Source of the DNA: an uncultured Mycoplasmatota bacterium | GTDB lineage: Bacteria; Bacillota_I; Bacilli_A; RF39; UBA660 | Direction: 5' to 3' | Length of the DNA: 64,000 nucleotides | Assembly (NCBI GenBank): GCA_900549625.1 | Contig: URPE01000002.1 | Coordinates: forward strand, 66,885 to 130,884 | Shown: positions 6,858 through 62,410 of the stretch, piece by piece | Layout of the letters: the number at the start of each line of letters is the position of its first letter | Position numbering within the stretch: the stretch's first letter is position 1 | Position numbers and translations under genes: made by a program | The notes under the pieces: model-generated | The model's database searches: none | Told to the model about the DNA's origin: nothing | What the model saw: only the letters and a program-made list of their open reading frames with translations

Positions 6858-6953
6858 ACTAGCACCCCAAATTCTAAAAATATTATATCACAAAGTACAT
6901 ATATATAATAGTTGTAAATCATGTTAGTAAAGTTATAATTTTGTGAAAATTTA

Positions 6954-13309: not shown

Positions 13310-13360
13310 AATATCACTGCTTTAATTTTAAAATAAAAGCAAAAAAAAAGAAAGTATAAA

Positions 13361-13687: not shown

Positions 13688-13695
13688 AAATTATA

Positions 13696-14010: not shown

Positions 14011-14312
14011 TACTTAAACAACTTAGCCATAAAACTTTCTTCTTTTTTCTTTGATTCACCTTTATCTAAATATTGATAGCTTACTATTTTACCTTTAATA
14101 CGAACATTACCATCATGGGTATCTAATTTTAGCAATTCTAAATTATTACCTTTTAAAAGTAATACCCCCATTGTTGTATCTAATAAAAACTCTTGTTCAT
14201 CAAAACTAGTAATTTTTTTTACACCCGTCAAGTATATTTCTCTTCTATCAATTATTTTAACCTCATGACTACTACTAACTAAATTAATACTAGTTTGTTC
14301 CATATTCTTCAC
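14010..14312 (-). CDS. yabP: sporulation protein YabP
   Basis: LTGVKKITSFDEQEF..LKGNNLEL..G.VRIKG pattern matching YabP. Confidence 0.65.
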   Translation of the reverse strand: MKNMEQTSINLVSSSHEVKIIDRREIYLTGVKKITSFDEQEFLLDTTMGVLLLKGNNLELLKLDTHDGNVRIKGKIVSYQYLDKGESKKKEESFMAKLFK

Positions 14313-14364
14313 CTATAAAAATATATGCTAAATAATAAAAAAAATTCTAGTCTAACTAGAACTT

Positions 14365-14634
14365 TTAATCAGAAGTGTTTTTATATTCTTCTAAAATTGC
14401 GTCTGTAAATTCACTACGAACATCTGGATTAATAGGATGGCAAACGTCTTTATATTCTCCAGTAGCTGTTTTTCTACTTGGCATAGCAATAAATAAACCA
14501 TTGTCTCCTTCAATAATACGAATGTCATGAACAGCAAAAGCATCGTCAATCAAAACTGATGCAATTCCTCTCAATCGTGAATTTTCTTTCGTAATTTTAC
14601 GAACGCTTACAGATGTAATTTTCATCATCTTCAC
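14365..14634 (-). CDS. spoVG: septation regulator SpoVG
   Basis: LRGIASVLIDDAFAVHDIRIIEGDNGLFIAMPSRKT..HPIN strongly SpoVG-like. Confidence 0.85.
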   Translation of the reverse strand: MKMMKITSVSVRKITKENSRLRGIASVLIDDAFAVHDIRIIEGDNGLFIAMPSRKTATGEYKDVCHPINPDVRSEFTDAILEEYKNTSD

Positions 14635-14703
14635 TCCTCTTCTTAAAGTTATGATTAACTTCTAATATCATTTTATAGCATAATATAAAGAAATTCAAGC
14701 ATT

Positions 14704-14916
14704 TTACATTAATTTTACAACCACATCACCAATTATAACATCGGCATAATTAAAACTTTTTTCAGTGCCATCAATATTAACTGTGAAAACATAAGGATAT
14801 ACCCCTGATAAAACTCCTCTATAGGTATTATTTTTATTACGCATGCCATAGACATGAATAACCACGTCCTTATCAAGATAACTTTTAATTTTATCTCTTA
14901 CTATATCTAAATTCAT
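14704..14916 (-). CDS. veg: Veg-family small protein
   Basis: 70-aa protein with YPYVFTVNIDG..SF.YADV pattern; ksgA-yabG-veg synteny. Confidence 0.55.
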   Translation of the reverse strand: MNLDIVRDKIKSYLDKDVVIHVYGMRNKNNTYRGVLSGVYPYVFTVNIDGTEKSFNYADVIIGDVVVKLM

Positions 14917-24141: not shown

Positions 24142-26052
24142 CTATAAAGTCTCCAAAGAATCAATATTTCCTTGAAAGAAAGAAGTTCTATTTCTCTCTT
24201 CATTAGAATTACTATTAGTTATAGGTGCCTGCTCTATTGTAGCACTAGCCCCACCCATAATATCACTAGATATCTCTTCATTTAAATTAGTATTACTTTC
24301 CCAATAACTTGAAACATCACAACTAGATGAATATGGCCTTGGATTAGGCATTTCCATTTTAATAATCATTGGAATTTTAAAAGCACTACCAAAAGAAACA
24401 CAAGTACCAGGTTGTAAAATTTTCATTTTTTCAATAACATCTTGACTAATATTAGGAAGCATCTCCTCGATATATTTTATATCCTTAGGGTGTGTCATTT
24501 TAAAAATCAAGAAATTAGAACATTGTGAAACAACTGTATCACTTATTTCCATTGGTCTTTGACTAATTATTCCTAAAATAACCCCATACTTTCTTCCTTC
24601 TTTAGCAATACGTTCAAATATATTATAACCAAGTAAATAAACATCTATATCTTTTTGAATATAACGATGGGCTTCCTCTAAAAACAAATGAAAAGGAATT
24701 GTTGCCCTATTAGCGTTCTCTTTAGAAAAATCAAAAATAAGTCTTGTATATATTTTTACAATTGCCTTAGATATATTATCATCAAGTCCTTCTAAGTTTA
24801 TATTAATTATCTGGGCTTTCTTATTATTTTTACTAACTAATTTAGTAACAAACTCTCCCATCGTAACAGCTTTATCAGAAGAAAATAACTTACCAACTGG
24901 TCCATGAATAATTGAATAAAGTCTTACCTTTAATAACTGAGCATCATCCATCAAATTACGGTTATTTTGAAACCCTTCACTTATTAAAGTAAATTCTAAA
25001 GCCCGAGAAAAATCCATTAAAGAATAAGCAACGTCTCCCATACTTTCATCAATTTCTAATGTCTCATCTATATATTTAAGAATATATTCAGTAATTAAAA
25101 CCTCTTCCCCAAACTTTCCTCTAGAGTCTATTTGGAAACATTCTGAGAAAGTTCTTGTATAACCAACGCCAGGTATCTTGGTATCTAAATTAAATTCTTT
25201 TGTATGACAAGTATGAATAATACTAAAAATATCATCTTTTTTCTTATCAGTTGTTTCACTACTATATAAAACAGTTATTAAAGCACTAGCAATAATATGA
25301 TTTTTATAACGATTAGATTCAGGTGTATCTAAAGAAAACATTTTAGCAAGCTTCATAGCTCGTTCTAATATTGTTAACTGTGAATGCTTATCTGCTTGTA
25401 AAAGAATAGCCATATCATCTACTTTAAGTAAATTCATCGGAATATTAATCATTTCATCATCATTATCTTTAATTCTTGACGTTACAAATTTATATTGATA
25501 ATAAGGACTAATATTAGAAATGCTTTTAAAGGCATTTTTATATTCCCCAAAAGAATCAAAGAAAAGCATATTTGCATTATATGAAACAGCAAATTTATTA
25601 CTTAATAAGTTTTGTACTACTCTTGCTACACCACATGATTTACCAGAACCAGTATTACCAAATATACATAAATGATTAGCAAGCATTTCATTAATCGAAG
25701 GACAAATATAAGAATCTTTATATGTTGCACTTTTACCCATTACAAAGTTTTTCTTAGATTGAACACCCATTAACTCTGTTCTTTCTTCTTCATTAATTGT
25801 TCTTATATTACTATTTAAACTAGCTTTTTTTAAAACACCATTGTAATAATGGCCATCAATAAATTCCCCTAAAAATTTAACCCTTATTTCATCTGATTTA
25901 ACTTCAGTGATTTCACTAAGAACTTTATGATCTCCATTTTCAAATATTAAATGTAAGTTAAGTAAATCAGCACTTACATCATCAGTCATCTTATTTTCAA
26001 TATACCCAATATTATCACTTAAATATAATATTTTTCCAAACATAGCAAGCAT
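24142..26052 (-). CDS. HerA/DUF87-family ATPase (FtsK-HerA superfamily)
   Basis: Walker A IFGNTGSGKS, Walker B LFLEEAHRY, C-terminal GRKYGVILGIISQRP HerA-type motif; stop codon 2 nt from tatD start. Confidence 0.6.
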   Translation of the reverse strand: MLAMFGKILYLSDNIGYIENKMTDDVSADLLNLHLIFENGDHKVLSEITEVKSDEIRVKFLGEFIDGHYYNGVLKKASLNSNIRTINEEERTELMGVQSKKNFVMGKSATYKDSYICPSINEMLANHLCIFGNTGSGKSCGVARVVQNLLSNKFAVSYNANMLFFDSFGEYKNAFKSISNISPYYQYKFVTSRIKDNDDEMINIPMNLLKVDDMAILLQADKHSQLTILERAMKLAKMFSLDTPESNRYKNHIIASALITVLYSSETTDKKKDDIFSIIHTCHTKEFNLDTKIPGVGYTRTFSECFQIDSRGKFGEEVLITEYILKYIDETLEIDESMGDVAYSLMDFSRALEFTLISEGFQNNRNLMDDAQLLKVRLYSIIHGPVGKLFSSDKAVTMGEFVTKLVSKNNKKAQIININLEGLDDNISKAIVKIYTRLIFDFSKENANRATIPFHLFLEEAHRYIQKDIDVYLLGYNIFERIAKEGRKYGVILGIISQRPMEISDTVVSQCSNFLIFKMTHPKDIKYIEEMLPNISQDVIEKMKILQPGTCVSFGSAFKIPMIIKMEMPNPRPYSSSCDVSSYWESNTNLNEEISSDIMGGASATIEQAPITNSNSNEERNRTSFFQGNIDSLETL

Positions 26053-28057: not shown

Positions 28058-31000
28058 TCAATGTTGTTCAAAAGAAGATAATAATTTTATTTTAACAAGT
28101 TTGGAATTATTAATTATAAACCCAAAGTCAATCGGTATTTCTTCACGATCTTCTCTAGTTATTTTAGCTACTTTAAACAAATTTTGTTCATCTATACCAC
28201 TGCCGACAAAAATGCCTTTTGACGTATCTGCACCAACTTTAAACCATTCATCATAGGCAAATGTTTTTATTACATCAGGATTGTCAACAATAACAAAAGA
28301 TACTAAATTCATTTGATTATTTTTTTGTAAAGTACCACTAAATTTCTTTTTTAACTCATCAGACAATTTATTCATAAAATCATTTATTCCACAAATAAAT
28401 ACACAAAGTTTTTTATGTTCAAGTAAACTAGCATCATTGAATCCATTACCTTGATAAATATCGTAAACCTTATCAACATAATCAGCTACTTTATTTATAA
28501 TTGAATCATAATTATTATTGTAAATTTTTTTCTCAATATCTACTATATCAAACTTTATATCATTACCGTTTAATATTAAAACATCATAAACATTTACATA
28601 TAAAATTTCCTTAATTAACGCCTGTAAGAAACCAGTAATTTTCTCTATTTCATAACTACTAATAAGTGAAATACTAGATTTTCCAAAATTATATTTTTCA
28701 GTTTCTAAAGTATTTTTATTTAAACCAATAGCCATACTAGTATCACGAGATATATTTTTAATTACATCATCAAAAGAAACACTATCAGGCAAAGATGGTA
28801 TAGGTAAAGCCTTATCTATATAAGTTTCACTTAATTCATTACCAAGATTTTTAATAAATTCCGAAAAATTATTTTTGTCTGTTGAATATGCGGTTTGAAA
28901 TTCATACACATTTTCTTTTTTAAATAAGCCACGGCCTTTAATCTTAGCCGGTGTTTTCCCTCTTATATTACCAAAAATATTAGCATAATCAGAATCATTA
29001 TTTTGTTGTAAAGCATATGTAAGTGAAATGTTTTGTTTAATTTTAACTCTAACACTTGTTTCACTACTAGCACTAATCACAAAATATATTCCATAACGAT
29101 AACTTTCTCTTAAAATAGAAGCAAGTTGTTCATTTAAATCTTCAAAATTTTCCAGAAATGATTCATAGTTATTAATAATTACAACAACTGCCGGAACATT
29201 TTCTCCGGAATTTTGATTATAGCCTTCATATGTACCTCCAAAAGAAGAAAATAACTTTTTACGTTCAACTAACAACTCATTAACCATTTTAAAGAGATTT
29301 ATAATTTTATCAGTATCATTTAAATATGCCACATCACCAACATGAGGAACATTTTTAAAAACACCCAATGTCTCAGAACCAAAATCTAAAATATAATAAT
29401 TAATTTCTAAAGGCGAATAACTCGTTATACCAGAGTAGATCATCGTGCTTATAAAAGTATCTTTGCCAGAGCCAGTTGTACCATAAAGAATAGCATTACC
29501 ATACTTTGTAAGTGGTATTGTTAACAAATATTGATTTTGTGTATTTGGATCATCATACTCGCCAATAACTAAATTAATATCAAAATCCTTCTTAAGATAA
29601 TTATATTTACTCTTTAAAGCATCAACATATATTTTATCTGGTATCTTATCTAGCCACAATTTATGTATTTTTATATTTTCAGATATGGCTAAATCACTTA
29701 AATATTTTACAATATTAGTTAGTTCTTCTCCTTGAGATTCAATTTTATAACTTTTAGTATTATCTTTGGACATTGTAACAAAACCAATATTATTAATTGC
29801 ATTAACTGAATTATCAGTTTGTTTTTTAAAAGTCACACTTGGATAATACTGTCCTCCAGCCCAAGCAGATTGTCCTAACGTAAATATTTCATCATAACCA
29901 ACTTGCAAGTAGAATCTACCTGTTTTTTTCAAAAATGCAGCATCAGGTTTCTTCAATACCTCCTGTGAATCTCCAGTATCTTGAACTTTCAAGCAAACTC
30001 TAAATCTAGTATTGGACCATATTTGTTGATCAACAACTCCACCAGGTTTTTGGGTAGCCAAAATTAAATGAATTCCTAAACTACGACCTACACGTGCCAC
30101 ACTTATAAGTTTATCCATAAAGTCAGGTTGTTGCTCCTTTAATTCTGCAAATTCATCGCTAATAATAAACAAATGTGAAATTGGCTCCTTACCAACTAAC
30201 CTTCCTTCTTTCCAAAGTTTTTGATATTTATAAATGTCCATTGTACTTTCATTCGTAACAACTTTTGCATCATTAAATTCTTTTTGTCTTCTCTTTACCT
30301 CACTTTCAATTGAAGCAAGTGATCTATTAAGTTCATTTCCATCTAAATTAGTGATTGTTCCCGCTAAATGTGGAAGAACATATTTATCATTTTTAAAAGC
30401 ACCGGCTAAACTACCACCTTTATAATCTATCAAAATAATTTGTACATCATAAGGACTATAATTAATTGCTAAAGATAAAACAAAAGTTATAATAAATTCT
30501 GATTTACCAGAACCAGTAGTTCCAGCAATCAAACCATGTGGTCCATGATAACGCTCATGTAAATCAAGACTAATTATTTCACCACTTTTTCCAATACCAA
30601 CTGGTGCTTGTAAGGAAAGAACAGGGTTACTCTTCTTCCATCTATCAAAAGAATTCAAATGTTCAACCTTACCTACTTGATACATTTCTAAATAATGATA
30701 AACGTCTGGCAAACTAGTTTGAGCATCATTCTTTAGTTCAATCTCAATATTTGCCAGTTCAACTGCGCAATTATATAGTTCTTCAACTGAAGATTCATCA
30801 ATAACAAACTGTTGATTACTCAAGTTAATAACACTATTAAAAATATAACAACCACTTTTATTCAAATTAATAAAATTTTTGCATTCATTTGGACAAGCAG
30901 AAACTCTATCCACAAGCATGACCATACTAAAACCAATATTTTCTCCATTACTCAAAACATTTTTGATTAGGTCATAGTTATCAACTGATTTTATTGCATC

Positions 31001-32653
31001 AGTAATAATTATATAATGTGGAATATTCCTAGCATCATTATCATTTTCTACTCTAGATTGAAAAACTTTTTCTAAATTATAAGCAATTTCTCTATATTCA
31101 TCATTACTAGAAGCAAAATAACGAAAAGTTTTATCGTTAGACCAACAATGTGGTAAAACTTTAACATAATCCCAAGCCGCCTCATTTTCCATAGATGTTA
31201 ATAAAACAATTTTAACCTCATCATAACTATATCTTGTAACAATTTGTAAAATAAGTCTATCTATAAAATCTTTGTTAATTTTATAATTGCCAACTATACC
31301 AGTTGCCACATTATCATAAAAAGAATATGTAATTGGAACATCTTTAAGAATTCTTTCCTTTTGTCCTAACTTATGCACCTCATCTAACAAATTATCTTCA
31401 TCTAAAGAAAAATGTTCTTCGGGATACTTTATTTCAATTTGCATTGGTAAATTGCCAATACCAATTGGTAAAGTCAAAAAATCATCATCAGTTATTCTTT
31501 TTTGCCAAAGTTTAACATTATGACCTTTAATTATATCTTGACATTGACTAATACTAAAATTATTTTCAATTAACCCTTGACGCTGTTTTTCTAATTCATT
31601 TAAAATTTCTTTTTCTTTTTTAGTCAAATATTTCATATACAATTTTTGACGTTTTCTTTCTAAATTTTTATTAGAAAATTTTTGATAGGCTCTTGTAAGC
31701 ATTGGCCATAGTAAACTACTAGCTAGCATAACGACACACATTGCAATGCTTGTCCAAGAATCATCAAAAGTACGTTTTCCAGATCCAATGGAATTCATTG
31801 TTGACATAAGCATTACCACTGACATCATAGACATTGTAAGCATTGGTCCAATCGTTAAAATTTCAGGAGTGCCATCATCATTAACTTTTGTTGGTGGCGC
31901 ATCAATTTGTAATATATAATGAGAAAGTTTTTGATAAAAATATGGCGTACGATAAAAATAATCCTTAGAAAAATTTAAACTTTCATCATTTAATTCAGCA
32001 TAATCTTCATTATAAGAAATTTTTTGTGGAACAACATTAACAAACGCAGCATTAAAGGCAAGTAATCCTCCAGGATTATTAATAAGAAAATAATCAATAC
32101 CATCTTGTTTCATTAAAATAAGTTTTAACCCATACCAGAAAATAATATCACCATATAAAATTCTTTGATGTTTATCCACTCTATTTTGATTAACAAAAAT
32201 TAATGAATTATCATCATTAACAGTTAAATAATAATAATTATCTTTCTTATTTATTGTAAAAGCAACCTCACTTATACCACCTAAATTATAACAAATTTCA
32301 TTTTTAGAAGAATTACCCACATGAATAACACTTTCATTATTAACACCAAATTCCTTATAAGAATTATCATAAACTGGTGAACAATATAAATAGTATTTTT
32401 CATGTCGAAAATTATTTTGTAAAGAATAGAAATGATAATTTTGTAGTATAACATTTGGTATCATAATATCTTGGTTATCAACAATAAAAGCATCATCATT
32501 GCTTATTAGTTTCCACCCATCACTTGAAGCTTCTATATTAACCATGTTTATCTTACGTCCATTTTCATAATTGGTAATCCAATAATTACCTACAACATTT
32601 TCTGGAAGTTTAAACACATTTAACTTATTTTCTTTAATAATTACTATTTCCAT
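28058..32653 (-). CDS. essC: type VIIb secretion FtsK/SpoIIIE-family ATPase EssC/YukB
   Basis: 1531 aa; N-terminal FHA-like domains, TM segments, three P-loop domains (GTTGSGKSE, GTTGSGKD). Confidence 0.85.
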   Translation of the reverse strand: MEIVIIKENKLNVFKLPENVVGNYWITNYENGRKINMVNIEASSDGWKLISNDDAFIVDNQDIMIPNVILQNYHFYSLQNNFRHEKYYLYCSPVYDNSYKEFGVNNESVIHVGNSSKNEICYNLGGISEVAFTINKKDNYYYLTVNDDNSLIFVNQNRVDKHQRILYGDIIFWYGLKLILMKQDGIDYFLINNPGGLLAFNAAFVNVVPQKISYNEDYAELNDESLNFSKDYFYRTPYFYQKLSHYILQIDAPPTKVNDDGTPEILTIGPMLTMSMMSVVMLMSTMNSIGSGKRTFDDSWTSIAMCVVMLASSLLWPMLTRAYQKFSNKNLERKRQKLYMKYLTKKEKEILNELEKQRQGLIENNFSISQCQDIIKGHNVKLWQKRITDDDFLTLPIGIGNLPMQIEIKYPEEHFSLDEDNLLDEVHKLGQKERILKDVPITYSFYDNVATGIVGNYKINKDFIDRLILQIVTRYSYDEVKIVLLTSMENEAAWDYVKVLPHCWSNDKTFRYFASSNDEYREIAYNLEKVFQSRVENDNDARNIPHYIIITDAIKSVDNYDLIKNVLSNGENIGFSMVMLVDRVSACPNECKNFINLNKSGCYIFNSVINLSNQQFVIDESSVEELYNCAVELANIEIELKNDAQTSLPDVYHYLEMYQVGKVEHLNSFDRWKKSNPVLSLQAPVGIGKSGEIISLDLHERYHGPHGLIAGTTGSGKSEFIITFVLSLAINYSPYDVQIILIDYKGGSLAGAFKNDKYVLPHLAGTITNLDGNELNRSLASIESEVKRRQKEFNDAKVVTNESTMDIYKYQKLWKEGRLVGKEPISHLFIISDEFAELKEQQPDFMDKLISVARVGRSLGIHLILATQKPGGVVDQQIWSNTRFRVCLKVQDTGDSQEVLKKPDAAFLKKTGRFYLQVGYDEIFTLGQSAWAGGQYYPSVTFKKQTDNSVNAINNIGFVTMSKDNTKSYKIESQGEELTNIVKYLSDLAISENIKIHKLWLDKIPDKIYVDALKSKYNYLKKDFDINLVIGEYDDPNTQNQYLLTIPLTKYGNAILYGTTGSGKDTFISTMIYSGITSYSPLEINYYILDFGSETLGVFKNVPHVGDVAYLNDTDKIINLFKMVNELLVERKKLFSSFGGTYEGYNQNSGENVPAVVVIINNYESFLENFEDLNEQLASILRESYRYGIYFVISASSETSVRVKIKQNISLTYALQQNNDSDYANIFGNIRGKTPAKIKGRGLFKKENVYEFQTAYSTDKNNFSEFIKNLGNELSETYIDKALPIPSLPDSVSFDDVIKNISRDTSMAIGLNKNTLETEKYNFGKSSISLISSYEIEKITGFLQALIKEILYVNVYDVLILNGNDIKFDIVDIEKKIYNNNYDSIINKVADYVDKVYDIYQGNGFNDASLLEHKKLCVFICGINDFMNKLSDELKKKFSGTLQKNNQMNLVSFVIVDNPDVIKTFAYDEWFKVGADTSKGIFVGSGIDEQNLFKVAKITREDREEIPIDFGFIINNSKLVKIKLLSSFEQH

Positions 32654-34176: not shown

Positions 34177-37152
34177 TTATTTTACCACACATTTAACTAT
34201 TATTTTTTCAAGACCATTAATATCTTTTACAGGTGATGACACATCTACTATTGTTAATTCAGTATTCCTTGCTAATAAAAATTCATTTTCCAAGTTATAG
34301 AAATCAGAAATTTGATTTATATAAGCACCTGGAGTACCCTTTTTAGCAATTATATCTAAAACTATTGGACAATCCATTCTTTTAGCAAAGGAAGTACTAT
34401 ATGCAGGAGAGGTACTTACATAACTTAAATCCTTAAAAGGTTTACCGATAAGAGTTTCCAAAGTAGTTGAAATTCTTGGCAAATCATTTTCAGCAATACC
34501 ATCAAACAAAGCGGCATAAACTGAGCTTTGAGCTGTAAAAGCAGATAAATTCACTCCCCTATATAATTCAGTTGCCTGCTCCAATCCGCCATATTTCATA
34601 ATAGCAGAATCAATATTTTTAACAAGTTTTTTTGCATCAAAACCATTTATATTACCATGAACATTTTTGGCCCTTATTTGACCATTTATAATGCTATACG
34701 CACTACTACTATAAATCCTTAAAGCAGAAATCTCGTCAGTTGTAAGCCGTGATAAAAATCTTCCCTGAATAGTATTATTCAAAAAATTCTGAAAAGAGGC
34801 TTTTGAAGCTCCAGATAATTTTCCAAGAACTTGTTGAACGGAGTATCCATGAACAAACATGTCATGAATAATTTTGCCTGCATCTCCATAATATGAAGAC
34901 ATTTGCCTTTTTGCTTCATCAAGCAATATACTAAATGAAATATAATTAGTTGGTTCACCAAAAGAATTTAAATCTGAAACATTTTCAGATAAGTTTTCTA
35001 TAGTTTGATTATTATTTAATTTCTGTAAATTCATAGTTTCAGTTATATCTAAAGAATCAAGTTGATTGTTACTAATATTATCATTTATATCAGATAAATT
35101 CATGGTTATCGTAACATCATTAGAAATATCTTGTTGTCTAGAAAATTTAGTATTAGCAATCATAGAAGGAGTATTTAATATACCAGCAGTAATACCTCCG
35201 TATAATGCACTTTGTATTACATTTCCTTTTAATTCATTTCCATCTATTTTCTCTCCAGTTATTAATGATTTTACTTCTTCTCCAAATATCTCTTGCCCGC
35301 CTTCTTCTAAGCCTTCTTTTGCCATTGAATGTATATAACTTTTGAAACTATCAACTGGTACATCATTAAAAAAACTTATTCCACCTAAAAATTTCTCGGT
35401 TATACTTTCTGTTGCTCCTGATATTACCCCATATGTTAAGGCTTGACTATTTGTATATCCTTCTGTTAACATTTCATGATAACTATTGCCTCCAGCTGAT
35501 ATTCCTAATAAGGCCGAACCTATTGCTCCTCCTCCTGCCATACTTAATGCTATCGATGGAGCCATATTTCCTATTCCTTGACTTATTGCATAATTATCTT
35601 TTAAATATGCTCCTGTATAATCTCCACTTGCTAAGGCTTGACTTAAATACATATTTTCGTATTCTTCTATTGTATTTGCTCTACTTGGACTTTCTCCTGT
35701 TATAAATGCTCCAGCTGCACTTATTGCATGTTCTATTCCACTTGCACTTGATTGTATTCCACTATCTATCCCTTTTCCTGTTACTTTTAAATGATTGGTA
35801 ATTGCTTCTTTTATATTTTCTTCCTTTGAAAGAGTATTTAAATATGCCTGTGCTTTCTCTTTACCTATTGCTTGATTTACTGTATTCTCTATTACTTTTA
35901 AATATTCATTAGCTTCATATACACCATATTTATCATTTAAATAATTATATATCTTACTATATGTTTCATCTGTCCTTGCTACATGTATTAAATTTAACAA
36001 TTGTTTTGTATGATCATCAACCGAATATGCTTCATTACTTAATTTTGATATTCTCTCTTCTAATCCCCTTGCATATTCTAATTCACTTACTTGTCCATAT
36101 CTTTTACAATATTCTTCATAACTTGTAAAATAATTGACTCCTTCGACATTTTCTATTGTTATTTTACTACTATCTACTTTATCTTTATTTTGATATTTAT
36201 CATAATCACTTAATACAGTTAAACATTCATATTTTGCTACATCTATATTTTGTTCTATTTGTTCTATGTTTGTTTCACAACTTGTTTTTAATTCCTTTAA
36301 TTCACTTATATATTTCTTGTAATCTTCTAATGTTCCAAACTTTTCTTTTATTACCTTTTGTGATTCTTTACTCAACATACTTATATCATCTATTGTTCTT
36401 AAATGATACTTTGCTCGACTAAATTCGTTTTCTATTGTTTCATATTCTTTTAACTCTTCATCTACTGCACTTATATATTGTTTCATTAATGTTTTTTGTG
36501 ATTCTAATGGATTTGTATATTCTTGATATGTTTCATTATACACTTTATCATCTATTACTAACTCTGGTGTTTCTACTTTGCTATCAATAAAACTTAATAA
36601 ACTTTTTAAAACATTTCCTATCTTTGATATCTTTGTTGCTTTACCTACCTCTTCATCACTTGTATTTATTATCTCATTATCACTTATTCTTCTATCTGTT
36701 TCTTTTATAAACTTACTTATATATTTTGACATTTCTTGTGTATTAGAACTTTGTTCGTTATATGTGTTTATCTCAAATAATTCTGTATCATTAACACTAG
36801 ATGAATCTATAGACATACTTATCTTACTTGCTACTATACTTGCATTGCTTTCTTTTACAATACCACCTTTTTCACTAACTTTGTTTTCTAAGCCTTCTAT
36901 ATCATTACAATATTCTTGCATATAAGAAACTATATTATTTATATTATTAGAAATATCATTATAATTACTTTTTATCTTCTTTAATAATCCATTAAAAGCT
37001 GATATATCATCATAATTGTCTGTTTGATAATTACTTATATCAAATACTTCCTTTTTATTAAGATAGTACTTACTATAATTTTCTAAAGTGTCAATAACTT
37101 TTCTTATATTATCCGTGTTTACTTCAGTTATCACCTTCATGAGAAAAACCAA
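34177..37152 (-). CDS. LXG-type polymorphic toxin with C-terminal C3/VIP2-like (R-S-E class) mono-ADP-ribosyltransferase domain
   Basis: C-terminal ELYRGV (Arg), YVSTSPAYSTS (STS) and ENEFLLARNTEL (E-x-E ARTT loop) motifs; N-terminal helical secretion domain shared with 37631..44467. Confidence 0.7.
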   Translation of the reverse strand: MVFLMKVITEVNTDNIRKVIDTLENYSKYYLNKKEVFDISNYQTDNYDDISAFNGLLKKIKSNYNDISNNINNIVSYMQEYCNDIEGLENKVSEKGGIVKESNASIVASKISMSIDSSSVNDTELFEINTYNEQSSNTQEMSKYISKFIKETDRRISDNEIINTSDEEVGKATKISKIGNVLKSLLSFIDSKVETPELVIDDKVYNETYQEYTNPLESQKTLMKQYISAVDEELKEYETIENEFSRAKYHLRTIDDISMLSKESQKVIKEKFGTLEDYKKYISELKELKTSCETNIEQIEQNIDVAKYECLTVLSDYDKYQNKDKVDSSKITIENVEGVNYFTSYEEYCKRYGQVSELEYARGLEERISKLSNEAYSVDDHTKQLLNLIHVARTDETYSKIYNYLNDKYGVYEANEYLKVIENTVNQAIGKEKAQAYLNTLSKEENIKEAITNHLKVTGKGIDSGIQSSASGIEHAISAAGAFITGESPSRANTIEEYENMYLSQALASGDYTGAYLKDNYAISQGIGNMAPSIALSMAGGGAIGSALLGISAGGNSYHEMLTEGYTNSQALTYGVISGATESITEKFLGGISFFNDVPVDSFKSYIHSMAKEGLEEGGQEIFGEEVKSLITGEKIDGNELKGNVIQSALYGGITAGILNTPSMIANTKFSRQQDISNDVTITMNLSDINDNISNNQLDSLDITETMNLQKLNNNQTIENLSENVSDLNSFGEPTNYISFSILLDEAKRQMSSYYGDAGKIIHDMFVHGYSVQQVLGKLSGASKASFQNFLNNTIQGRFLSRLTTDEISALRIYSSSAYSIINGQIRAKNVHGNINGFDAKKLVKNIDSAIMKYGGLEQATELYRGVNLSAFTAQSSVYAALFDGIAENDLPRISTTLETLIGKPFKDLSYVSTSPAYSTSFAKRMDCPIVLDIIAKKGTPGAYINQISDFYNLENEFLLARNTELTIVDVSSPVKDINGLEKIIVKCVVK

Positions 37153-37630: not shown

Positions 37631-40600
37631 CTAACTAGCTTTTTCAATTTGAAGGTCATTAATTTTAATATCTATCTTTTCTAACAAAGAATCTATATCA
37701 ATATCTATCTTATTAATTCTTTGAGTCTTCTCATTGGTAACATCAAACTTTCTATTTTCATCCTTAATAGTGTTCTTTATAAATAATAAATTGTCAATGT
37801 CGTCTGAATTTTTAATGGCTTCATTTAATAAGTTAGTAACTCTATCAGCTGAAAAATATTTAGTTATTAGTTCACTATCCGTTGCATTTCTATATCCACT
37901 TCTATTATTTTCATGTAATGTTAATATTGATTTTATCAATTCAACATTTCCAGTACTTTTATACTCTTTTATCAATTTATCTATTTTAATACTTTCTGAC
38001 TGTGCTAGTTTAGACTTATTAATATACACTAATGGAACATTAAAATCTACACTTGCTTTATATGCATTTTGTTTCTGTTCAGCACTCATCTCTTCAAATA
38101 CAACAACATAATCTGGTTGAATATTAGCAAGACGACCTTCACCAGTCAAATTTGTTCTTTCTAAATTAAATTCATTGTGTGTATGTCTAGTCTCATTCAT
38201 AACATCTTTTCCAGGTAAATATAATAGCTGGCGTTGACTTTTTATTACATATCCATCATTCATTGTAAAAATATCATAAGGTGCCATCATATTCATTTGT
38301 TCATTTGAAAAACTATTAAAGCCTATTACAACACCTTTACCCTTAACCATAGCCATTCCCATATTATTATTAGAAATCAAAGAACAGCATATACCATGAT
38401 TAGCAGTTCTACTAGACAAATTCCATGAATCAAAATAACTATCATTTATTATAGGCATTCCGCCATAGTTAGTATAGGTACTCTGAATTAGCATTTGAAA
38501 ATCACTTTCTGGTTCATAAACAGGAATTTTTTTCCCTTCATACTCGACATAATTGGTTATTTTAGTAGGATTAAACAAAGTTGCTTTTAGGCTTTTTGTA
38601 TAGACTTGTTTAATTGCGTTTATTATATTTAATGTATCATTCATATTATAACTGCTTGTTGATTCTAAACTAGAATAAACATTTTTAGCATTTTCAAGAG
38701 ATGATATATTTAAAATATCATTGATTTTACTCAAATAGGTTGTTGCAATTCCATTAGCATCTAAATCTTTAATTGATGAAAAATTACTGCCATACATTCT
38801 ATACAATTCAGTTGCGTCCTCTAAACTCATAGAAAAATATTTATTAAAAATTAAATTTTGAACCTCTGTAACATTAGTAGCATGCTTCAACAATGAATCA
38901 CACTTTTCAGCTAATTTAATATTATAATTTCTTAAATTATAATTATCTGGAGTAACAAGACTTCTCTCTCTCTTAACTTCTTGATTATTACCATTCACAA
39001 CAGAAAACAAATCGACTTGTTTTAAAATAATATTTCTTGCATTTTCCAAATCTGTTAAATCATGTATATTTAACAATTCAGCATTCACATCATTTTTTAG
39101 AAGATAATTTAACATAAAAGACATTTTTTGATCAGCTACTATTGAACTGGCAGAAGAATTATCATTAATAACAGATTGAACAAATAAATCAAATTTATCA
39201 TTATTACTCTTAAGTTGATTAATCTGCTCTACAACATCATAATATTTACTTAACTTAGTTAAGAATTTATCCCCAAACTTATAAATAGCTTCTTCAAATA
39301 AAGAATAATTAAATGTTGATAAAACAAATCTATTTTTTTCTTTAATTTTAGATAATACATTTAGCTTTTCATCATTAATCAAACCTTTTTTATATGCTTC
39401 AGCAAAAAGAGATTTTTGAGGTATAGTAGCTTCTTTTAACAAATTATTAATTTGGTTATTTCCAATATCATTTATAAACTTATCAATCTTATCGGTTAAT
39501 AATTTTTTGTTTTCAGCAGATAAATTTTCGTAAATAAGTTCAGCATCAGTATACATAAAATTATTTAATATTAAATCATTACTTTTTATCATTTCATTAA
39601 ACTTACTATTTAAATCTTTTCGTTTTGAAAATGAAAGTAAAAATCCCAAAAAATCATTATCAGCATTATTTAAAATATAATCAATATACTGTGGTTCTAA
39701 ACTATCAAAAAAGCCATCAAAATATTTTAAATTATCTGCATCGATAGACTTTCTAAATTTATTATCACTTATAATTTCTTCTATTAATTTAAATTTTGTA
39801 TCTTTATTTTTAACAAGTCCACGAAACAACATATAATATTTATCAGTACTTTCCAATGAATCTAATATTTCAAGTTGTTGAGTAGTTTCATAATGACTAA
39901 GTAATTCTGAAAAATAATGATACTGATAAGATGAATAAGAAGTACGATTAAAATTAAAGCCTTCAATCATATTTTTTATTTTTTCTAAATCAAGCTTTGT
40001 AAAAGCTTCTTTTCTAGCTAATTCTAAAACTGTTTCAGTATTAATATTATCATAAAACTTATTTATATCACCATTTTCTTTTAGTAAACTCAAAAAATCT
40101 ATTGTCTCATTATGACTAGAGTAATTATTCATTATATTTATTAATTGAGGAAATTCTCTAAAAGCTTCTATATACTCTTGTTCAAGTCCAAGTTGCATGA
40201 CATATTCATAATTAAAAGCGACTAATTTTTGCTTTTTTGAAAGATAATTTATTACCTTTTTATAAGCTTCTTCATTATAATTTGCCATTGCCCTTAAGTG
40301 GTCACCAGATATACCACGACATTCCTTAGATTTTATTTTATCTATCACAATATCTACCAATTGTTCACTATTGAATAATCCAATTGTTGAAAATAGTGTA
40401 TCAATTGGTATATTGTCTTTTATTTTCTGTTTACCAATAGGATCTGCAGCTTCATACAAATCAATTAAAGTACCTTCATAACCCATTTGGATACTCTTAA
40501 AATCATTGGCAATCAATTTATCAATAACAGCATCTATTGCCTTTTGATTTCCAAGTTTAGCTAAATCAGAATATTTTTCACTTGGTAACTCAAGGGCAGC

Positions 40601-53019: not shown

Positions 53020-53040
53020 TACTTACCTCCACCGCAAATT

Positions 53041-53054
53041 ATTTCCCGGGAAAT
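53041..53054. promoter_or_regulatory. Noc-binding-site palindrome between methyltransferase gene and pth
   Basis: exact NBS consensus. Confidence 0.6.
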
Positions 53055-53060
53055 AATTTT

Positions 53061-53771
53061 CTACTTTTTAAATATATTTTGATACGTATCTAGTCCATCA
53101 ATACATATTTCATTCATCACTTTACACCCAAAATTACTCTTTTTAACTAAACAGACCAATACTAAAATTGGCGTTCTTCCTTCTTTAGACGTTACAAATT
53201 GCATTTTCTTTATATGAAAGCCATACTCATTTGCATACAAAATAATCTCTTCAATTCTTTCTGGTATATGTACTAAATAAAACTTTCCCTTATTATTTAA
53301 TAAAAAATTAGCCATTGCCATTAATTCTTTTAAATTGATTTTTATTTCATGTCTAGCAATTCCCTTAACTAATTCATCATTTATAAATTGTTCATTATGA
53401 TATTTAAAATATGGCGGATTAGCTAAAACAACATCAAAATTATTTCCCGGGAAATAATTTTTTAAATTTAAAACGTTATCGTTAAGAATTGTTATATGTT
53501 TTTCCATTTTATTATATAAAACCGAATCACTCGCTAACTCAGCTATTTCTTTTTGTATTTCAACACCATAAATATCTTTTTGATATTTTTGATAAAGTAA
53601 AATAGGAATCACTGCATTACCAGTACATAAATCAATTATTTTATTATCACTTTTTTTTATTTCTGCAAACTCTGCTAATAAAACCGAATCAAGAGAAAAT
53701 TTAAAACCTTCTTCAAATTGATAAACTTTTAAATTTGGATAATCATATAACCAATTAAGAACTTTTTTCAT
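53061..53771 (-). CDS. SAM-dependent N6-adenine methyltransferase (YabB / tRNA m6A37 MTase-like)
   Basis: DLCTGNAVI SAM motif and LANPPYF (NPPY) catalytic motif. Confidence 0.6.
   Translation of the reverse strand: MKKVLNWLYDYPNLKVYQFEEGFKFSLDSVLLAEFAEIKKSDNKIIDLCTGNAVIPILLYQKYQKDIYGVEIQKEIAELASDSVLYNKMEKHITILNDNVLNLKNYFPGNNFDVVLANPPYFKYHNEQFINDELVKGIARHEIKINLKELMAMANFLLNNKGKFYLVHIPERIEEIILYANEYGFHIKKMQFVTSKEGRTPILVLVCLVKKSNFGCKVMNEICIDGLDTYQNIFKK
53442..53455. promoter_or_regulatory. Noc-binding-site palindrome inside methyltransferase gene (encodes YFPGNN)
   Basis: exact NBS consensus. Confidence 0.6.
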
Positions 53772-56235: not shown

Positions 56236-56532
56236 TTACATTAAACCATCTAACATACCAGCATATTGTCCTAGTTTATTCTCGTATTCTTTTTCAACTT
56301 TATTAATTGCGTCTTTTGTAGCCATAATAATAAAGTCTTCTAGCATCTCAATATCTTCTTTTTCTAAAGACTCTTTATTAATTTTGCATTTAACCATCTC
56401 TTTTTTACCATTTAAAGTTACTTCAACAAACTCATATTTCCCGGGAAATAATTGAGCACCAATTTCATCTTTCTTTTTTTGTAAATCTCTTTGCATTCTT
56501 TGGGCCTGAGCCATGATACTTTGCATATTCAT
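56236..56532 (-). CDS. ybaB: nucleoid-associated protein YbaB/EbfC
   Basis: 98 aa, MQSIMAQAQRMQ..L..E..G signature between recR and dnaX. Confidence 0.85.
   Translation of the reverse strand: MNMQSIMAQAQRMQRDLQKKKDEIGAQLFPGKYEFVEVTLNGKKEMVKCKINKESLEKEDIEMLEDFIIMATKDAINKVEKEYENKLGQYAGMLDGLM
56436..56449. promoter_or_regulatory. Noc-binding-site palindrome inside ybaB (encodes LFPGKY)
   Basis: exact NBS consensus. Confidence 0.6.
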
Positions 56533-58682: not shown

Positions 58683-58703
58683 AATTCATCACCCATAAAA
58701 AAA

Positions 58704-58777
58704 GTGCACACAAGTAGGGATTGACGTGGCTGCTATCTTCCGATCCTGACCAATTTACAATATACTTGTTGCACGAC
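58704..58777 (-). ncRNA. ffs: signal recognition particle RNA (small 4.5S-type; exact ends uncertain)
   Basis: minus-strand GGTCAGGATCGGAAGATAGCAGCCACG matches the conserved SRP RNA domain IV core; closing helix GTGCAACAAGTA/TACTTGTGTGCAC; T-run terminator. Confidence 0.5.
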
Positions 58778-58822
58778 TAAATATTATCAAACATTTATCA
58801 AAAAATCAATCAAAAATTTATA

Positions 58823-58850
58823 TGTTTCACGTGAAACATTGTTATTCACA
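58823..58850. promoter_or_regulatory. parS site (TGTTTCACGTGAAACA, 58823..58838) abutting DnaA box TTATTCACA (58842..58850)
   Basis: perfect match to B. subtilis-type parS consensus; 1-mismatch DnaA box. Confidence 0.75.
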
Positions 58851-58853
58851 ATT

Positions 58854-58867
58854 ATTTCCCGGGAAAT
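58854..58867. promoter_or_regulatory. Noc-binding-site palindrome ATTTCCCGGGAAAT
   Basis: exact match to the published B. subtilis NBS consensus; 16-bp palindrome TATTTCCCGGGAAATA. Confidence 0.65.
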
Positions 58868-58999
58868 ATTTTAAATACTATTTATATTAAATAATAATCT
58901 TGCAAAACTAAAAATAATTAACACGCTAAAAAATAAAAAGTATTTAAAATAAATTATATATTTGTTTGATTTTTATCCAAATTTTATAAATTTTGCATA

Positions 59000-59026
59000 T
59001 GTCTCACGTGAAACATCTTATCCACA
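59000..59026. promoter_or_regulatory. parS-like site TGTCTCACGTGAAACA (1 mismatch) abutting perfect DnaA box TTATCCACA (59018..59026)
   Basis: sequence match. Confidence 0.7.
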
Positions 59027-59181
59027 ATACTAACAAATTAAAATCAATTCAAGAATACAATAATTAAATTTATATCACCATTCAAAATAAAGTCCTTGTA
59101 TTTTGCATCGAAATTAGTCTGTTAATATAATTATTTGGTTTATTTCAAGCTTTTATTTTAAATTTATATCTATATTTTATA

Positions 59182-59208
59182 TGTTTCACGTGAAACATCT
59201 TATCAACA
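59182..59208. promoter_or_regulatory. parS site (59182..59197) abutting DnaA box TTATCAACA (59200..59208)
   Basis: sequence match. Confidence 0.75.
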
Positions 59209-59375
59209 ATTGCTAACGATTTAACATTAATTCAAAGATTCAATAATCAAATTTATATTAATATTCATAATAAAGCTCTTGTATTTTGCATCGAAATTAG
59301 TAATTTAACATAACTATATGGTTTAATTTAAGCTTGTTTTTTTGTTTTTTATGCGATTTTAATTGATTTTGCATA

Positions 59376-59403
59376 TGTTTCACGTGAAACATTGTTATTC
59401 ACA
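59376..59403. promoter_or_regulatory. parS site (59376..59391) abutting DnaA box TTATTCACA (59395..59403)
   Basis: sequence match. Confidence 0.75.
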
Positions 59404-59516
59404 ATTAATAAAATTTAATAATTAATTTAGTTAATAAAGAAATAAACTTTTTTTTAAGATGAGGAGTTTCATTATCATTTTATTTATAAAATATATGTTT
59501 TTTACATTTTTAACTA

Positions 59517-59543
59517 TGTTTCACGTGAAACATCTTATCAACA
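59517..59543. promoter_or_regulatory. parS site (59517..59532) abutting DnaA box TTATCAACA (59535..59543)
   Basis: sequence match. Confidence 0.75.
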
Positions 59544-59726
59544 ATTACGAATTTAATATAATTTATTAAAAAAATTTAAAATTAACTTTAATTTAAAAGG
59601 GTTAACATAGAATATTAATAATAGAATCTTTGTATTTTGCATTGAAATTAGCAAATTAACATAACCATATAATTAATTTTAAGTTTATTTTTTGCTTTTT
59701 TATGCGATTTTAATTAATTTTGCATA

Positions 59727-59753
59727 TGTTTCACGTGAAACATCTTATCAACA
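59727..59753. promoter_or_regulatory. parS site (59727..59742) abutting DnaA box TTATCAACA (59745..59753)
   Basis: sequence match. Confidence 0.75.
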
Positions 59754-59855
59754 TTATAATAAAAACTAATGTTTTAAAATTATTACAAACAGTTTATTAA
59801 AATCAACAGTAGCAATATTAATGGGATATCAGCAATAAGTATTTATGGTAAAATT

Positions 59856-59872
59856 TTCGACACCATTCGACA
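59856..59872. promoter_or_regulatory. two tandem Spo0A-box matches (TTCGACA = TGTCGAA on minus strand) 10 bp apart
   Basis: TTCGACAccaTTCGACA; perfect 7-mer 0A boxes at 59856..59862 and 59866..59872. Confidence 0.45.
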
Positions 59873-59889
59873 AAGAAATATTTAATATA

Positions 59890-59917
59890 TGTTTCACGTG
59901 AAACATTGTTATTCACA
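59890..59917. promoter_or_regulatory. parS site (59890..59905) abutting DnaA box TTATTCACA (59909..59917)
   Basis: sequence match. Confidence 0.75.
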
Positions 59918-59921
59918 AATT

Positions 59922-59935
59922 ATTTCCCGGGAAAT
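59922..59935. promoter_or_regulatory. Noc-binding-site palindrome ATTTCCCGGGAAAT
   Basis: exact NBS consensus. Confidence 0.65.
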
Positions 59936-59942
59936 AATTACA

Positions 59943-59968
59943 TAAAAAAAACAGAGATTTTAATTCTC
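59943..59968 (-). terminator. weak hairpin plus T8 run downstream of gyrA
   Basis: GAGA..TCTC stem overlapping gyrA stop followed by TTTTTTTT on the minus strand. Confidence 0.3.
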
Positions 59969-62410
59969 CGCTTTTTCTTCAGAAGTAATATTTGATTCTT
60001 CTTTTAATTCATGTTCCACAATACTAATAGTAGATACTGATTGATTGTCTTTTAAATTAATTAACCTAACTCCCTGTGTAACTCTACCTAAAGTAGATAC
60101 TTGATCTAATGGCATTCTAATTAACATACCAGTATTAGTTATAATAACAACATCAGAATTATCCTCTACTAATTTAAAGGCCGCTATAGAACCATTTTTT
60201 TCAGTTATATTAAGAGCTTTTACTCCTTTACTTCCCCTACTAGTTTGTCTATAATCACGAACATATGTTTGTTTGCCATAACCTTTCTCTGTAACTATTA
60301 ATATCTTGTTATCATCTGTTGCAATCTCAGCCCCAATACATTCAGAATCCTCTAAGTTAATGCCTCTTACACCACTGGCTGTACGTCCCATGACTCTAAC
60401 ACTTTCCTCATTAAATTTTACCATTCTACCAGCACTAGAGCCAAGTAAAATCATATCATTACCACCAGTTTTACGAACACTTATTAATTCATCAGAATCC
60501 CTTAAAGAAATACAAATTTTTCCGTTCGTTCTAATATTTTCAAATTCCTCTAAAGACGTCTTTTTAACAATTCCTTTCTTGGTAACAAATAATAAATATT
60601 TTGAATTATCTTCTCTTGTTACACTTATCATTGAATTAATTGATTCATCTTTATCAATTTGTAATAAGTTGATAACCGGTATACCCTTAGATTGACGACT
60701 ATATTCAGGAATTTCATAACCTTTTAAGCGATATACCTTACCTTTATTGGTAAAGAACAATACATAATCATGTGTTGATAAGCTAAGTAAATGTTCTACG
60801 AAATCCTCTTCATTAGTTCCCATTCCTTTAACTCCAACACCACCTCTATTTTGTGATTTAAATGTATCTATTGTCGTACGTTTAATATAGCCTTTATTAG
60901 TTAAAGCAATCATAATATTTTCTTCTGGAATTAATGATTCATCTTCAATATATTCAACCGCAGTCATATCAATATGTGTTCTACGTTCATCTGCATATTT
61001 AGCCTTAATTTCTAGAAGTTCATCACGAATAATGCCTAACACCTTCTCATCACTAGCTAAAATAGCCCGTAACTCTTCAATTCGTTTCAATAAGTCATTT
61101 AACTCATTCTCAATCTTTTCCTTCTCTAAGCCCGTTAAACGACGTAATTTCATCTCTAAAATTGCATCACATTGAATCTCAGATAAACCAAACCTACTCA
61201 TTAACGTTTCTTTAGCTAAAATATCTGTTTTACTTTCTTTAATTATCTTTATAACTTCATCAATATTATCTAAAGCAATTTTTAAGCCTTCTAATATATG
61301 TACTCTATCCTCTGCTTTTTTCAAATCAAACTTAGTACGGCGAATAATTACTTCTTTTTGAAAATCTATATACTTACTAATAATATCTTTAAGTCCCAAA
61401 GTTTTTGGTACACCTTGATCAATCATCAATAAAATTATACCATATGTTGTTTGAAAAGCCGTATGTTTATATAAATTATTTAACACAACCTGAGGATTTG
61501 CATCACGCTTCAAAGTAATTGTAATTTTAATACCATCTTTTAAATCTGAATGATAATCACTTATTCCATCAATTACTTTATTATGAACTAATTCAGCCAC
61601 TTTATTTTTTAATTCTAAAGTATTAACACCATAAGGAACCTCATCAATAACAATTTGATAACGACCATTTTTTTCCTCAATATTGGCTTTACTTCTTATT
61701 GTTATAGTTCCTCTACCAGTTTCATAAGCTTTTTTAATACCACTATTACCAAGAATAATTGCCCCAGTTGGAAAATCTGGACCCTTAATATATTCCATTA
61801 ATCCTAAAGTATCAATATCGGGATTATTAATATAAGCAACACATCCATCAATTACTTCGCCTAAATTATGAGGAGGAATATTTGTAGCCATACCAACTGC
61901 TATACCCATTGTACCATTTACTAAAATATTAGGAAATCTACTAGGAAGAACAACCGGCTCTTCTTCTAACTCATCAAAATTAGGTGTCATATCTACCGTA
62001 TTTTTATTAATATCTCTTAATAATTCACTAGATATTTTTGCAAGTCTTGATTCAGTGTAACGCATCGCCGCGGCACCATCACCATCCATATTACCAAAGT
62101 TACCATGTCCATCAACAAGTGGATAACGATAACTAAAATCTTGTGCCATACGTACTAAAGCTTCGTATATTGATGAATCGCCATGTGGGTGAAATTTACC
62201 CATAACATCACCAACGATACGCGCTGATTTTTTATGTTGTTTATCATTAGTATAACCAGATTGATACATTGAATATAAAATACGACGATGAACTGGTTTT
62301 AAACCATCTCTTAAATCTGGTAAAGCACGTGAGGTAATAACACTTAAAGAATAGTTTACAAACGACGTACTAACTTCAGAAACAATATTATTTTTTTCTA
62401 ATCTATCCAT
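59960..62410 (-). CDS. gyrA: DNA gyrase subunit A
   Basis: active-site region and AAMRYTE motif (catalytic Tyr), QRDR-like [14 protein letters not shown], 816 aa. Confidence 0.95.

Follow-up and report, generated by a model that had tools for sequence, protein, structure and literature searches.

Tandem parS sites, each paired with a DnaA-like box, form a probable origin-proximal centromere downstream of gyrA in an uncultured gut bacterium

Introduction

The parS sites of Bacillus subtilis, on which the ParB protein Spo0J loads, lie singly and mostly inside genes. Eight origin-proximal parS are distributed across the oriC-proximal region of this chromosome and serve Spo0J/SMC loading (PMC3245932, PMC7333895). 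Streptomyces coelicolor and Listeria innocua are both reported to have about 22 parS (PMC5815017, PMC7333895), and the parS cluster of Myxococcus xanthus, which is about 4 kb distant from parA, comprises 22 sites over about 3 kb (PMC3899335). Why the number of parS varies, why the sites cluster and how centromere regions expand are given as open questions in reviews (PMC7333895, PMC5815017). Here we analyse an array of seven parS sites, each followed by a 9-bp sequence that resembles the binding site (box) of the initiator DnaA, which lies downstream of gyrA in a 64,000-nucleotide stretch (the window) of the genome of an uncultured Mycoplasmatota bacterium (GTDB lineage Bacillota_I; Bacilli_A; RF39; UBA660; contig URPE01000002.1, positions 66,885 to 130,884).

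In Escherichia coli, datA is a cluster of DnaA boxes near oriC that restrains initiation, and the F plasmid has an iterated centromere, sopC, made of 12 units of 43 bp. The oriC-proximal DnaA-box clusters (DBCs) of B. subtilis also restrain initiation, and their deletion is synergistic with the loss of spo0J (PMC3245932). In Caulobacter crescentus, DnaA binds boxes in the parS locus, about 8 kb from the origin, promoting segregation (PMC6399470), and the cisII/cisMP repeats on the secondary replicons of Deinococcus bind both DnaA and ParB (PMC7671480).

The array described here has the 16-bp parS consensus and the origin-proximal position known from B. subtilis, which belongs to the same class (Bacilli), but all the parS detectable in about 85 kb are packed in one non-coding array of 1.1 kb. 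M. xanthus likewise has many near-consensus sites packed close to its origin, and the density, about 6-7 per kb, is similar. Myxococcus, however, belongs to a different phylum and has its cluster beside parAB, whereas our array follows gyrA and no parAB lies near it; the passages of PMC3899335 on the cluster mention neither DnaA boxes nor Noc sites next to it. DnaA boxes inside a centromere recall Caulobacter, with the difference that box binding is here predicted from the sequence. Moreover, segregation in this alphaproteobacterium is ParA-driven and its locus has no module of one box per parS, whereas here such a module is polar and repeated 7-11 times. The boxes of the B. subtilis DBCs are closely spaced, match the consensus and lie apart from parS, while the array has solitary boxes, most of them deviating from the consensus, which stand at intervals of more than 130 bp and are each tied to a parS. 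As in sopC, the array consists of tandem units with one ParB site each, and as in the Deinococcus elements, ParB and DnaA sites, here predicted ones, share one repeat region. Those repeats belong to a plasmid and to secondary replicons, and those of Deinococcus are also origins, whereas the array is on the main chromosome and separate from oriC.

The B. subtilis system of Noc, a division regulator acting in nucleoid occlusion, is a further relative: the 16-bp Noc-binding site (NBS) found here is identical, and a ParB paralogue with Noc-type residues is encoded after rsmG (PMC7383237, PMC8429893). The NBS of B. subtilis are scattered round the chromosome; here they are origin-proximal and stand at both ends of the parS array, and some related genomes have them in alternation with parS, in tandem units of 66-118 bp. 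The Noc-type protein, of 409-490 amino acids (aa) with a long low-complexity insert, also differs from B. subtilis Noc. An earlier reading of the window, made from its sequence (the original prediction), had held that ParB and DnaA sites repeated side by side are not a standard annotated feature. This was overstated, since dense parS arrays (Myxococcus, PMC3899335) and DnaA at a centromere (Caulobacter, PMC6399470) are known. We found no description of a polar one-box-per-parS unit repeated 7-11 times, or of parS and NBS bracketing or interleaving at one conserved locus.

Results

Seven parS sites in a 1.1-kb non-coding array

The array (58818-59940; positions are those of the window) is non-coding, with a longest open reading frame (ORF) of 36 aa, and contains 19.7% GC compared to 27.6% in the window. 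The 16-bp palindrome tGTTNCACGTGAAACa of the chromosomal centromeres of the ParB/Spo0J system is present at seven sites, six of them perfect. When TGTTTCACGTGAAACA was searched with up to two mismatches, all seven copies fell in 58823-59905 and none was found in the rest of the 64-kb window. The chance expectation for the window is 0.02, and seven copies were obtained in none of 100 shuffles. The copy at 59000 has one mismatch (TGTCTC...), and all seven have A...T flanks that extend the site to an 18-bp palindrome.

A 9-mer, TTAT[C/T][C/A]ACA, accompanies each 16-mer on its oriC side, with a gap of 2-3 nt and always on the + strand. In units 1 (58823-58850), 4 (59376-59403) and 7 (59890-59917), a perfect parS (58823-58838 in unit 1) is joined by a TTG linker to the box TTATTCACA, which starts at 58842 (ending at 58850), 59395 and 59909, respectively. 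Units 3 (59182-59208), 5 (59517-59543) and 6 (59727-59753) combine a perfect parS, a TC linker and the box TTATCAACA, starting at 59200, 59535 and 59745. Unit 2 (59000-59026) carries the one-mismatch parS TGTCTCACGTGAAACA, which is perfect in the same-species allele L049, followed by a TC linker and the only perfect box, TTATCCACA (59018-59026). The original prediction had thus counted and described both elements correctly: seven parS, six of them perfect, in 1.1 kb, and after every one a box, one perfect and the others with a single mismatch. The units are spaced by 141-210 bp. Tandem Repeats Finder reported a 183-bp period with 83% identity, repeat families of 59-133 nt are also present, and a 59-nt module, parS-box-TATTTCCCGGGAAATA, is common to both end units. 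The units are therefore partly derived from one another.

Two Spo0A-box heptamers (TGTCGAA), 10 bp apart on the minus strand, also lie inside the array (59856-59862 and 59866-59872). The heptamer occurs 12 times in the window, with 3.0 expected, and the L049 allele keeps only one of the array's two copies intact.

The parS cluster is conserved at the same place throughout the clade

A scan with GyrA, taking one genome per species, gave 80 related loci (GyrA 70-100% identical), all from metagenome-assembled genomes (MAGs) of uncultured gut Bacilli labelled Bacilli, 'Tenericutes', Candidatus Ventrenecus, CAG:877 and similar. The gene order dnaA...gyrB-gyrA-spacer-deaminase-dnaX-ybaB-recR-holB-ricT is kept throughout. 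Allowing two known degenerate parS positions, the spacer downstream of gyrA contains 353 parS in 65 kb (5.4 per kb), compared to 29 in the other 1,309 kb (0.02 per kb), an enrichment of about 245-fold. Most of these 29 outlying sites are in the next gap, between the deaminase gene and dnaX, or just inside dnaX, and it is there that the three complete spacers lacking parS have theirs. Consequently, every complete locus (47/47) has a parS cluster in the gyrA-dnaX interval, with 2-14 sites each; complete spacers have a median of 5 and a maximum of 14. Unit length varies from 37-41 bp in tight tandem arrays (with up to 14 copies, in L012) to several hundred bp; in L012-L015 the units are of 40-41 bp, in up to 14 copies, with one ParB site each. 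Within the species of the window, three assemblies have 7, 9 and 11 units, with identical end units and with internal units duplicated or deleted.

A syntenic parS cluster across the clade, with variable copy number, leads us to regard the locus as very probably the origin-proximal centromere of this clade. The conserved position and the parS enrichment support the ParB loading platform proposed in the original prediction, and close relatives do share the array downstream of gyrA. The opposite outcome, a generic repeat dispersed through the genome, is not what was found, parS being confined to the array in the window and concentrated in the spacer in the 80 loci.

The array is close to, and separate from, a conventional oriC

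GC skew is negative over the entire window, with no switch at the array, and the origin is thus to the right of the window. Related loci and extended contigs place dnaA-dnaN there, just beyond the edge, as had been anticipated. In the same-species locus L049, the region upstream of dnaA carries five perfect TTATCCACA boxes, one TTATTCACA and two TTATCAACA; two more perfect boxes are in the 5' end of dnaA, and the dnaA-dnaN spacer has three boxes (one perfect), among them a tandem pair, with TTATCCACATTATCCACC followed by a run of TAT/TAA trinucleotides and AT-rich DNA. This spacer holds the usual box pair with a DnaA-trio-like arrangement, and the whole is a conventional bipartite oriC flanking dnaA. 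The oriC elements are 7-9.6 kb from the array in L049, so that the array is origin-proximal, as parS centromeres are.

The far side of oriC was reached through longer same-species contigs found with the Jag protein. It has the order rpmH-rnpA-yidC-jag-(664-aa protein, once or twice)-mnmE-mnmG-rsmG, followed by a single ParB-family gene of 409 aa, and neither parS nor NBS was found within about 20 kb on this side in the same species. The 664-aa protein, which has no Pfam or NCBIfam match, is present in 1, 2 or 0 copies per strain between jag and mnmE (L081:10729-12723; L082:10729-12723 and 12865-14859). A ComK-family gene (Pfam PF06338) lies between dnaN and recF (L049:5540-6019; L081:4768-5247).

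In the sub-clade of the window, the boxes beside parS are polar and resemble those of oriC

Boxes with up to one mismatch to TTATCCACA number eight in the 1.1 kb of the array, all on one strand, compared to 0.64 per kb on both strands across the window. The array thus contains several near-consensus boxes in a short non-coding stretch, as DBCs and datA do. To extend this beyond one genome, TTATNNACN was searched within 20 nt of parS in the sub-clade with GyrA at least 85% identical. It was found beside 61 of the 82 parS on the gyrA/oriC side and beside none of the 82 on the opposite side, with a background of 1.35%. These boxes read away from parS, after a linker of 2-6 nt. Position 9, which the search had left free, is A in 53 of the 61 sites, and the preceding base is G or C in all 61, compared to 87 of 164 boxes at oriC. 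An unbiased 6-mer comparison of flanks with spacers returned only words derived from the box.

The variants seen beside parS (CA, TC, AA, GC, AC and TA at positions 5-6) recur, along with the perfect CC, at a raised density in the clade's own oriC DNA, where 164 occur in about 14 kb (about 12 per kb), compared to 106 in 66 kb of coding DNA (1.6 per kb). Between two alleles of the same species, the columns of parS, box and NBS differ at 1 of 157 positions and the spacers at 79 of 781 (Fisher p = 6e-6). The box columns alone are polymorphic at 0 of 45 positions, compared to 10% in the spacers. The boxes are, then, under purifying selection within the species.

Over the whole clade a box is near 89 of 376 parS (about 3% expected), and other lineages arrange the two elements differently. 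L024 has the box on the far side of parS, pointing toward it. In L074 an extended, perfect palindrome box-parS-box is formed, and L040 carries NBS-a-TGTGGATAA-ca-parS, the same triplet as in the end units of the window with a perfect box. Perfect TGTGGATAA boxes in orientations other than that of the window were found beside parS in L040, L074 and L043. The linker of 2-6 nt and these varied orientations suggest that the 9-mer is a site separate from parS, repeatedly placed beside it, and not an extension of the ParB site. The association of the box with parS is lineage-specific.

Noc-binding sites bracket the array

The palindrome TATTTCCCGGGAAATA is the NBS of Bacillus. Perfect copies occur at both ends of the array, a pair that the original prediction had not noticed: one at 58853-58868, 2 nt after the box of unit 1 (forming a parS-box-NBS triplet), and the other at 59921-59936, 3 nt after the box of unit 7 and 24 nt from the stop codon of gyrA. 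The window contains seven perfect NBS (0.2 expected), all at 47.7-59.9 kb; the 17 kb closest to the origin hold all of them, and the remaining 47 kb are free of NBS. The five outside the array are at 47719-47734, 48452-48467, 53040-53055, 53441-53456 and 56435-56450, some of them inside metS and ybaB; that at 47719 is directly followed by TTATCAACA. By a strict count of the 16-mer, NBS are present in 24 of the 47 complete spacers. Tandem units alternating parS and NBS were found in L042 (76 bp; 12561-12820), L063 (about 118 bp; 6681-6960) and L048 (66 bp; 12501-12694), and an array of NBS only, with a period of 71-72 bp, in L050 (12561-12826). One promiscuous protein acting through hybrid parS/NBS sites was considered as well, and no hybrids were found at up to one mismatch.

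The ParB-family gene after rsmG in the same species (L081:16843-18072) encodes the 409-aa protein, and a homologue in L017 (1194-2666) one of 490 aa. The former scored 202 bits to Noc structures versus 163 bits to B. subtilis Spo0J, and 295 bits on the NCBIfam model nucleoid_noc, below its cut-off of 315. The residues that switch ParB to Noc specificity are RTAG in ParB and QKKR in Noc (PMC7383237). Both proteins have Q-K-N-R and so carry the Noc residues (Q173, K179 and/or K184, R201), on which grounds the protein is predicted to bind NBS and not parS. Both are unusually long, with a low-complexity insert rich in Asn, Asp and Glu, and share a motif inside the chain, MPNKFFNFLEDE; their genes are followed by neither parA nor a second parB. 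They have hardly any N-terminal extension of the kind that contains the membrane-targeting helix in B. subtilis Noc, the ParB N-domain starting after only about 5 residues. The internal KFFNFLEDE motif might substitute for this N-terminal amphipathic helix.

Discussion

A probable centromere that would recruit DnaA and Noc

We propose that a parS-specific ParB (Spo0J-type, a CTP-dependent clamp) loads densely on the array, about 7 kb from oriC, and that the loaded ParB, presumably as a loader of SMC, would organise the origin region just after its replication and ensure its segregation. The array would expand and contract through unequal recombination between its 140-210-bp units. In the lineage of the window each parS would have gained an oriC-facing, fixed-orientation 9-bp DnaA box of the non-consensus class used at oriC, through which DnaA may be recruited to the centromere, and the NBS at the array ends would bring the membrane-associated ParB paralogue Noc to the same locus. 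Taken whole (centromere, DnaA recruitment and Noc at the ends), this is the explanation that we favour with reasonable though limited confidence. For its DnaA component, we think it somewhat likely that DnaA binds the boxes of the array. What such boxes might do is a more tentative matter: the most plausible role is that of an origin-proximal DnaA sink or sensor, similar to the B. subtilis DBCs and here merged with the ParB platform, and the boxes could in this way influence initiation. A bolder version is rather unlikely in our opinion, although worth stating. A DnaA molecule on the oriC-facing side of every parS would be a polar partner of the ParB-CTP clamp (a roadblock confining or directing its sliding, or a loader or sensor), so that centromere assembly would follow the status of DnaA without Soj/ParA; co-loaded Noc would tether this three-protein landing pad to the membrane, and the interleaved parS/NBS units of the relatives would be the ancestral form of a coupled centromere and membrane anchor.

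Several observations weigh against the explanation that we favour. The main gap in the centromere model concerns ParB itself. Neither a parS-type ParB (R173...G201) nor parA/soj was found in the window, in 84 related loci or in about 20 kb beyond oriC, and the sole ParB-family gene near oriC is the Noc-type one. When the window and all loci were searched by tblastn, with an approximate B. subtilis Spo0J sequence and the clade's own ParB-family proteins as queries, only the rsmG-linked Noc-type genes were matched, and neither ParA nor a second ParB was found past jag in the same-species contigs. A ParB that binds parS would then have to be encoded in another part of the genome. As for the boxes, the 58 arrays with at least three parS show a strong association in 11, a partial one in 11 and none in 36, so that the box is dispensable for the core function of the array. 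In the window only 1 of the 7 parS-linked boxes has the perfect consensus, and half of the sub-clade boxes have A at position 6. This base lowers the affinity of DnaA in model organisms. Cooperative DnaA filaments on the array are unlikely, because the boxes are single and more than 130 bp apart. As the units are partly duplicated, the seven parS-box pairings in one genome are not independent events, a problem that the cross-species and polymorphism tests address only in part. Finally, the copy numbers, among them the 7, 9 and 11 units of one species, are provisional, because they come from short-read metagenome assemblies, which often break at the array. The original idea that the platform is coupled to DnaA therefore stands in part: the boxes are under selection and their variants match those of the clade's oriC, but the pairing exists in some lineages only and the Soj/ParA gene that was to provide the link was not found near oriC in this species.

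Other explanations of the array

One alternative keeps the centromere and assigns TTATNMACA to something other than DnaA: the motif would be bound by an accessory protein of ParB or Noc or by a regulator not yet known, or it would extend the ParB contact asymmetrically. We consider this unlikely, though a serious contender. The motif tolerates an unusual amount of variation at positions 5-6, about half of the sites having A at position 6; the G or C that always precedes it at parS does so in 87 of 164 cases at oriC; its side and orientation relative to parS are strict, as would be expected of a composite site; and no link between ParA and DnaA was found in the window or in about 20 kb beyond oriC. 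What argues for DnaA is that conservation covers exactly 9 bp, which agree with the DnaA-box consensus at seven fixed positions and also at position 9, that the variable linker points to two separate sites, that the same variants are enriched in the true oriC, and that the perfect TGTGGATAA boxes in other orientations fit an independent DnaA site. If the boxes were taken at face value as those of an origin, the array, with eight of them in 1.1 kb of very AT-rich DNA near dnaA, could be an additional origin of replication or, as the original prediction had suggested, a displaced oriC or a component of a bipartite one. This proved wrong in all likelihood: the same species has a complete conventional bipartite oriC flanking dnaA about 7 kb away (with five perfect and three near-perfect boxes upstream of dnaA, in addition to those in dnaA and the dnaA-dnaN spacer), whereas only one box of the array is perfect and neither a box pair nor a trio run is present. 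In most of the clade's arrays boxes are absent, and the GC skew does not switch at the array. We therefore hold a displaced origin to be very improbable.

The repeats could also be regulatory DNA, namely operators or promoters for scr or gyrA, or small-RNA genes. Unit 1 adjoins the region upstream of the signal recognition particle (SRP) RNA gene, some spacers contain strings like TTGCAT-N17-TATAAT, and in phage-like contigs parS lies beside a promoter-like TTTACA. However, promoter-like matches number 19, compared to 19.0 in shuffles; there are no terminators, and the strings are not kept between units. Rfam, both at the gathering threshold and at E<=1, returned only the neighbouring SRP RNA, and conservation is limited to parS, box and NBS, the spacers being free to diverge. 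A regulatory role for the repeats thus has little probability. The last alternative sees in the array a repeat that is selfish or mobile, the centromere of an integrated plasmid or phage, or an artefact of assembly. It is scarcely credible to us, even though the units are tandem and of variable copy number and contigs often break at them. The tight 37-41-bp tandem arrays of some relatives do resemble plasmid centromeres such as F sopC. Yet 80 independent assemblies from many species have the same syntenic position filled, the array had no blastn match among 72,556 plasmids, no mobility genes were found near the array in the window or in the extended same-species contigs, and parS has no copies elsewhere in the window. 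Among 2.9 million viral contigs, the composite pattern was found in 89, as isolated sites in each and never as tandem composites; most of these 89 belong to a family of contigs of about 15 kb in which TTATTTACA is a -35-like element beside parS.

Contigs of this viral family (L090-L092 and others) have 4-6 parS each, with pairs of parS beside a promoter-like TTTACA-N17-TATGAT. Another contig classed as viral (L093:3250-3280; IMGVR_UViG_3300025617_000871) has parS amid several perfect GTTATCCACA and looks like a fragment of a bacterial oriC.

Significance of the locus

Returning to the centromere with its putative DnaA and Noc sites, the locus shows what looks like centromere expansion in progress: one syntenic position with 2-14 sites across species, and 7, 9 and 11 units in one species, by duplication of units. 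Its modules of about 30 bp juxtapose ParB and predicted DnaA sites with a fixed polarity, and in relatives ParB and Noc sites alternate, which makes these arrays a natural test substrate. They open to direct test the effect of a bound initiator on ParB clamps, be it a block, guidance or stimulation, and the behaviour of two paralogous CTP-dependent clamps loaded next to each other. Should DnaA bind, the locus would join that of Caulobacter as the second, independent example of a centromere with the initiator built into it. There is also a practical side. Of the 80 contigs, 33 end in the spacer, within about 2 kb downstream of gyrA, most of them less than 500 bp from it, so that the arrays break the assembly right after gyrA in about 40% of the MAGs. 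Presumably the parS/NBS repeats break short-read assemblies, and the origin regions of this clade are systematically fragmented.

Genes around the array and in the rest of the window

The conserved oriC-side boundary of the array is gyrA (59960-62410, minus strand; NCBIfam gyrA, 1133 bits). On the other side the array is bounded by the SRP (4.5S/scr) RNA gene (58698-58778, minus strand; Rfam RF00169), whose upstream region unit 1 abuts. The next gene encodes a 137-aa deaminase that scored 54 bits against an NCBIfam cut-off of 150 bits and is TadA-like by synteny. Of the placement between gyrA and tadA given in the original prediction, the position downstream of gyrA is right, but the SRP RNA gene separates the array from the deaminase gene. 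The order in the window is gyrB (cut by the edge), gyrA, array, SRP RNA, deaminase, dnaX, ybaB, recR, bofA, holB and ricT, all on the minus strand.

Farther from the origin, a T-box leader (48490-48672, minus strand; Rfam RF00230, 122 bits) precedes metS (46402-47955) by about 535 bp. Between the two there is an ORF of 160 aa (47952-48434), and a perfect NBS is placed between the leader and this ORF. Two large ORFs without Pfam match, 37631-44467 (2278 aa) and 34177-37152 (991 aa), are on the minus strand, near genes for a 1531-aa FtsK/SpoIIIE-family protein (28058-32653) and a HerA-like DUF87 protein (24142-26052).

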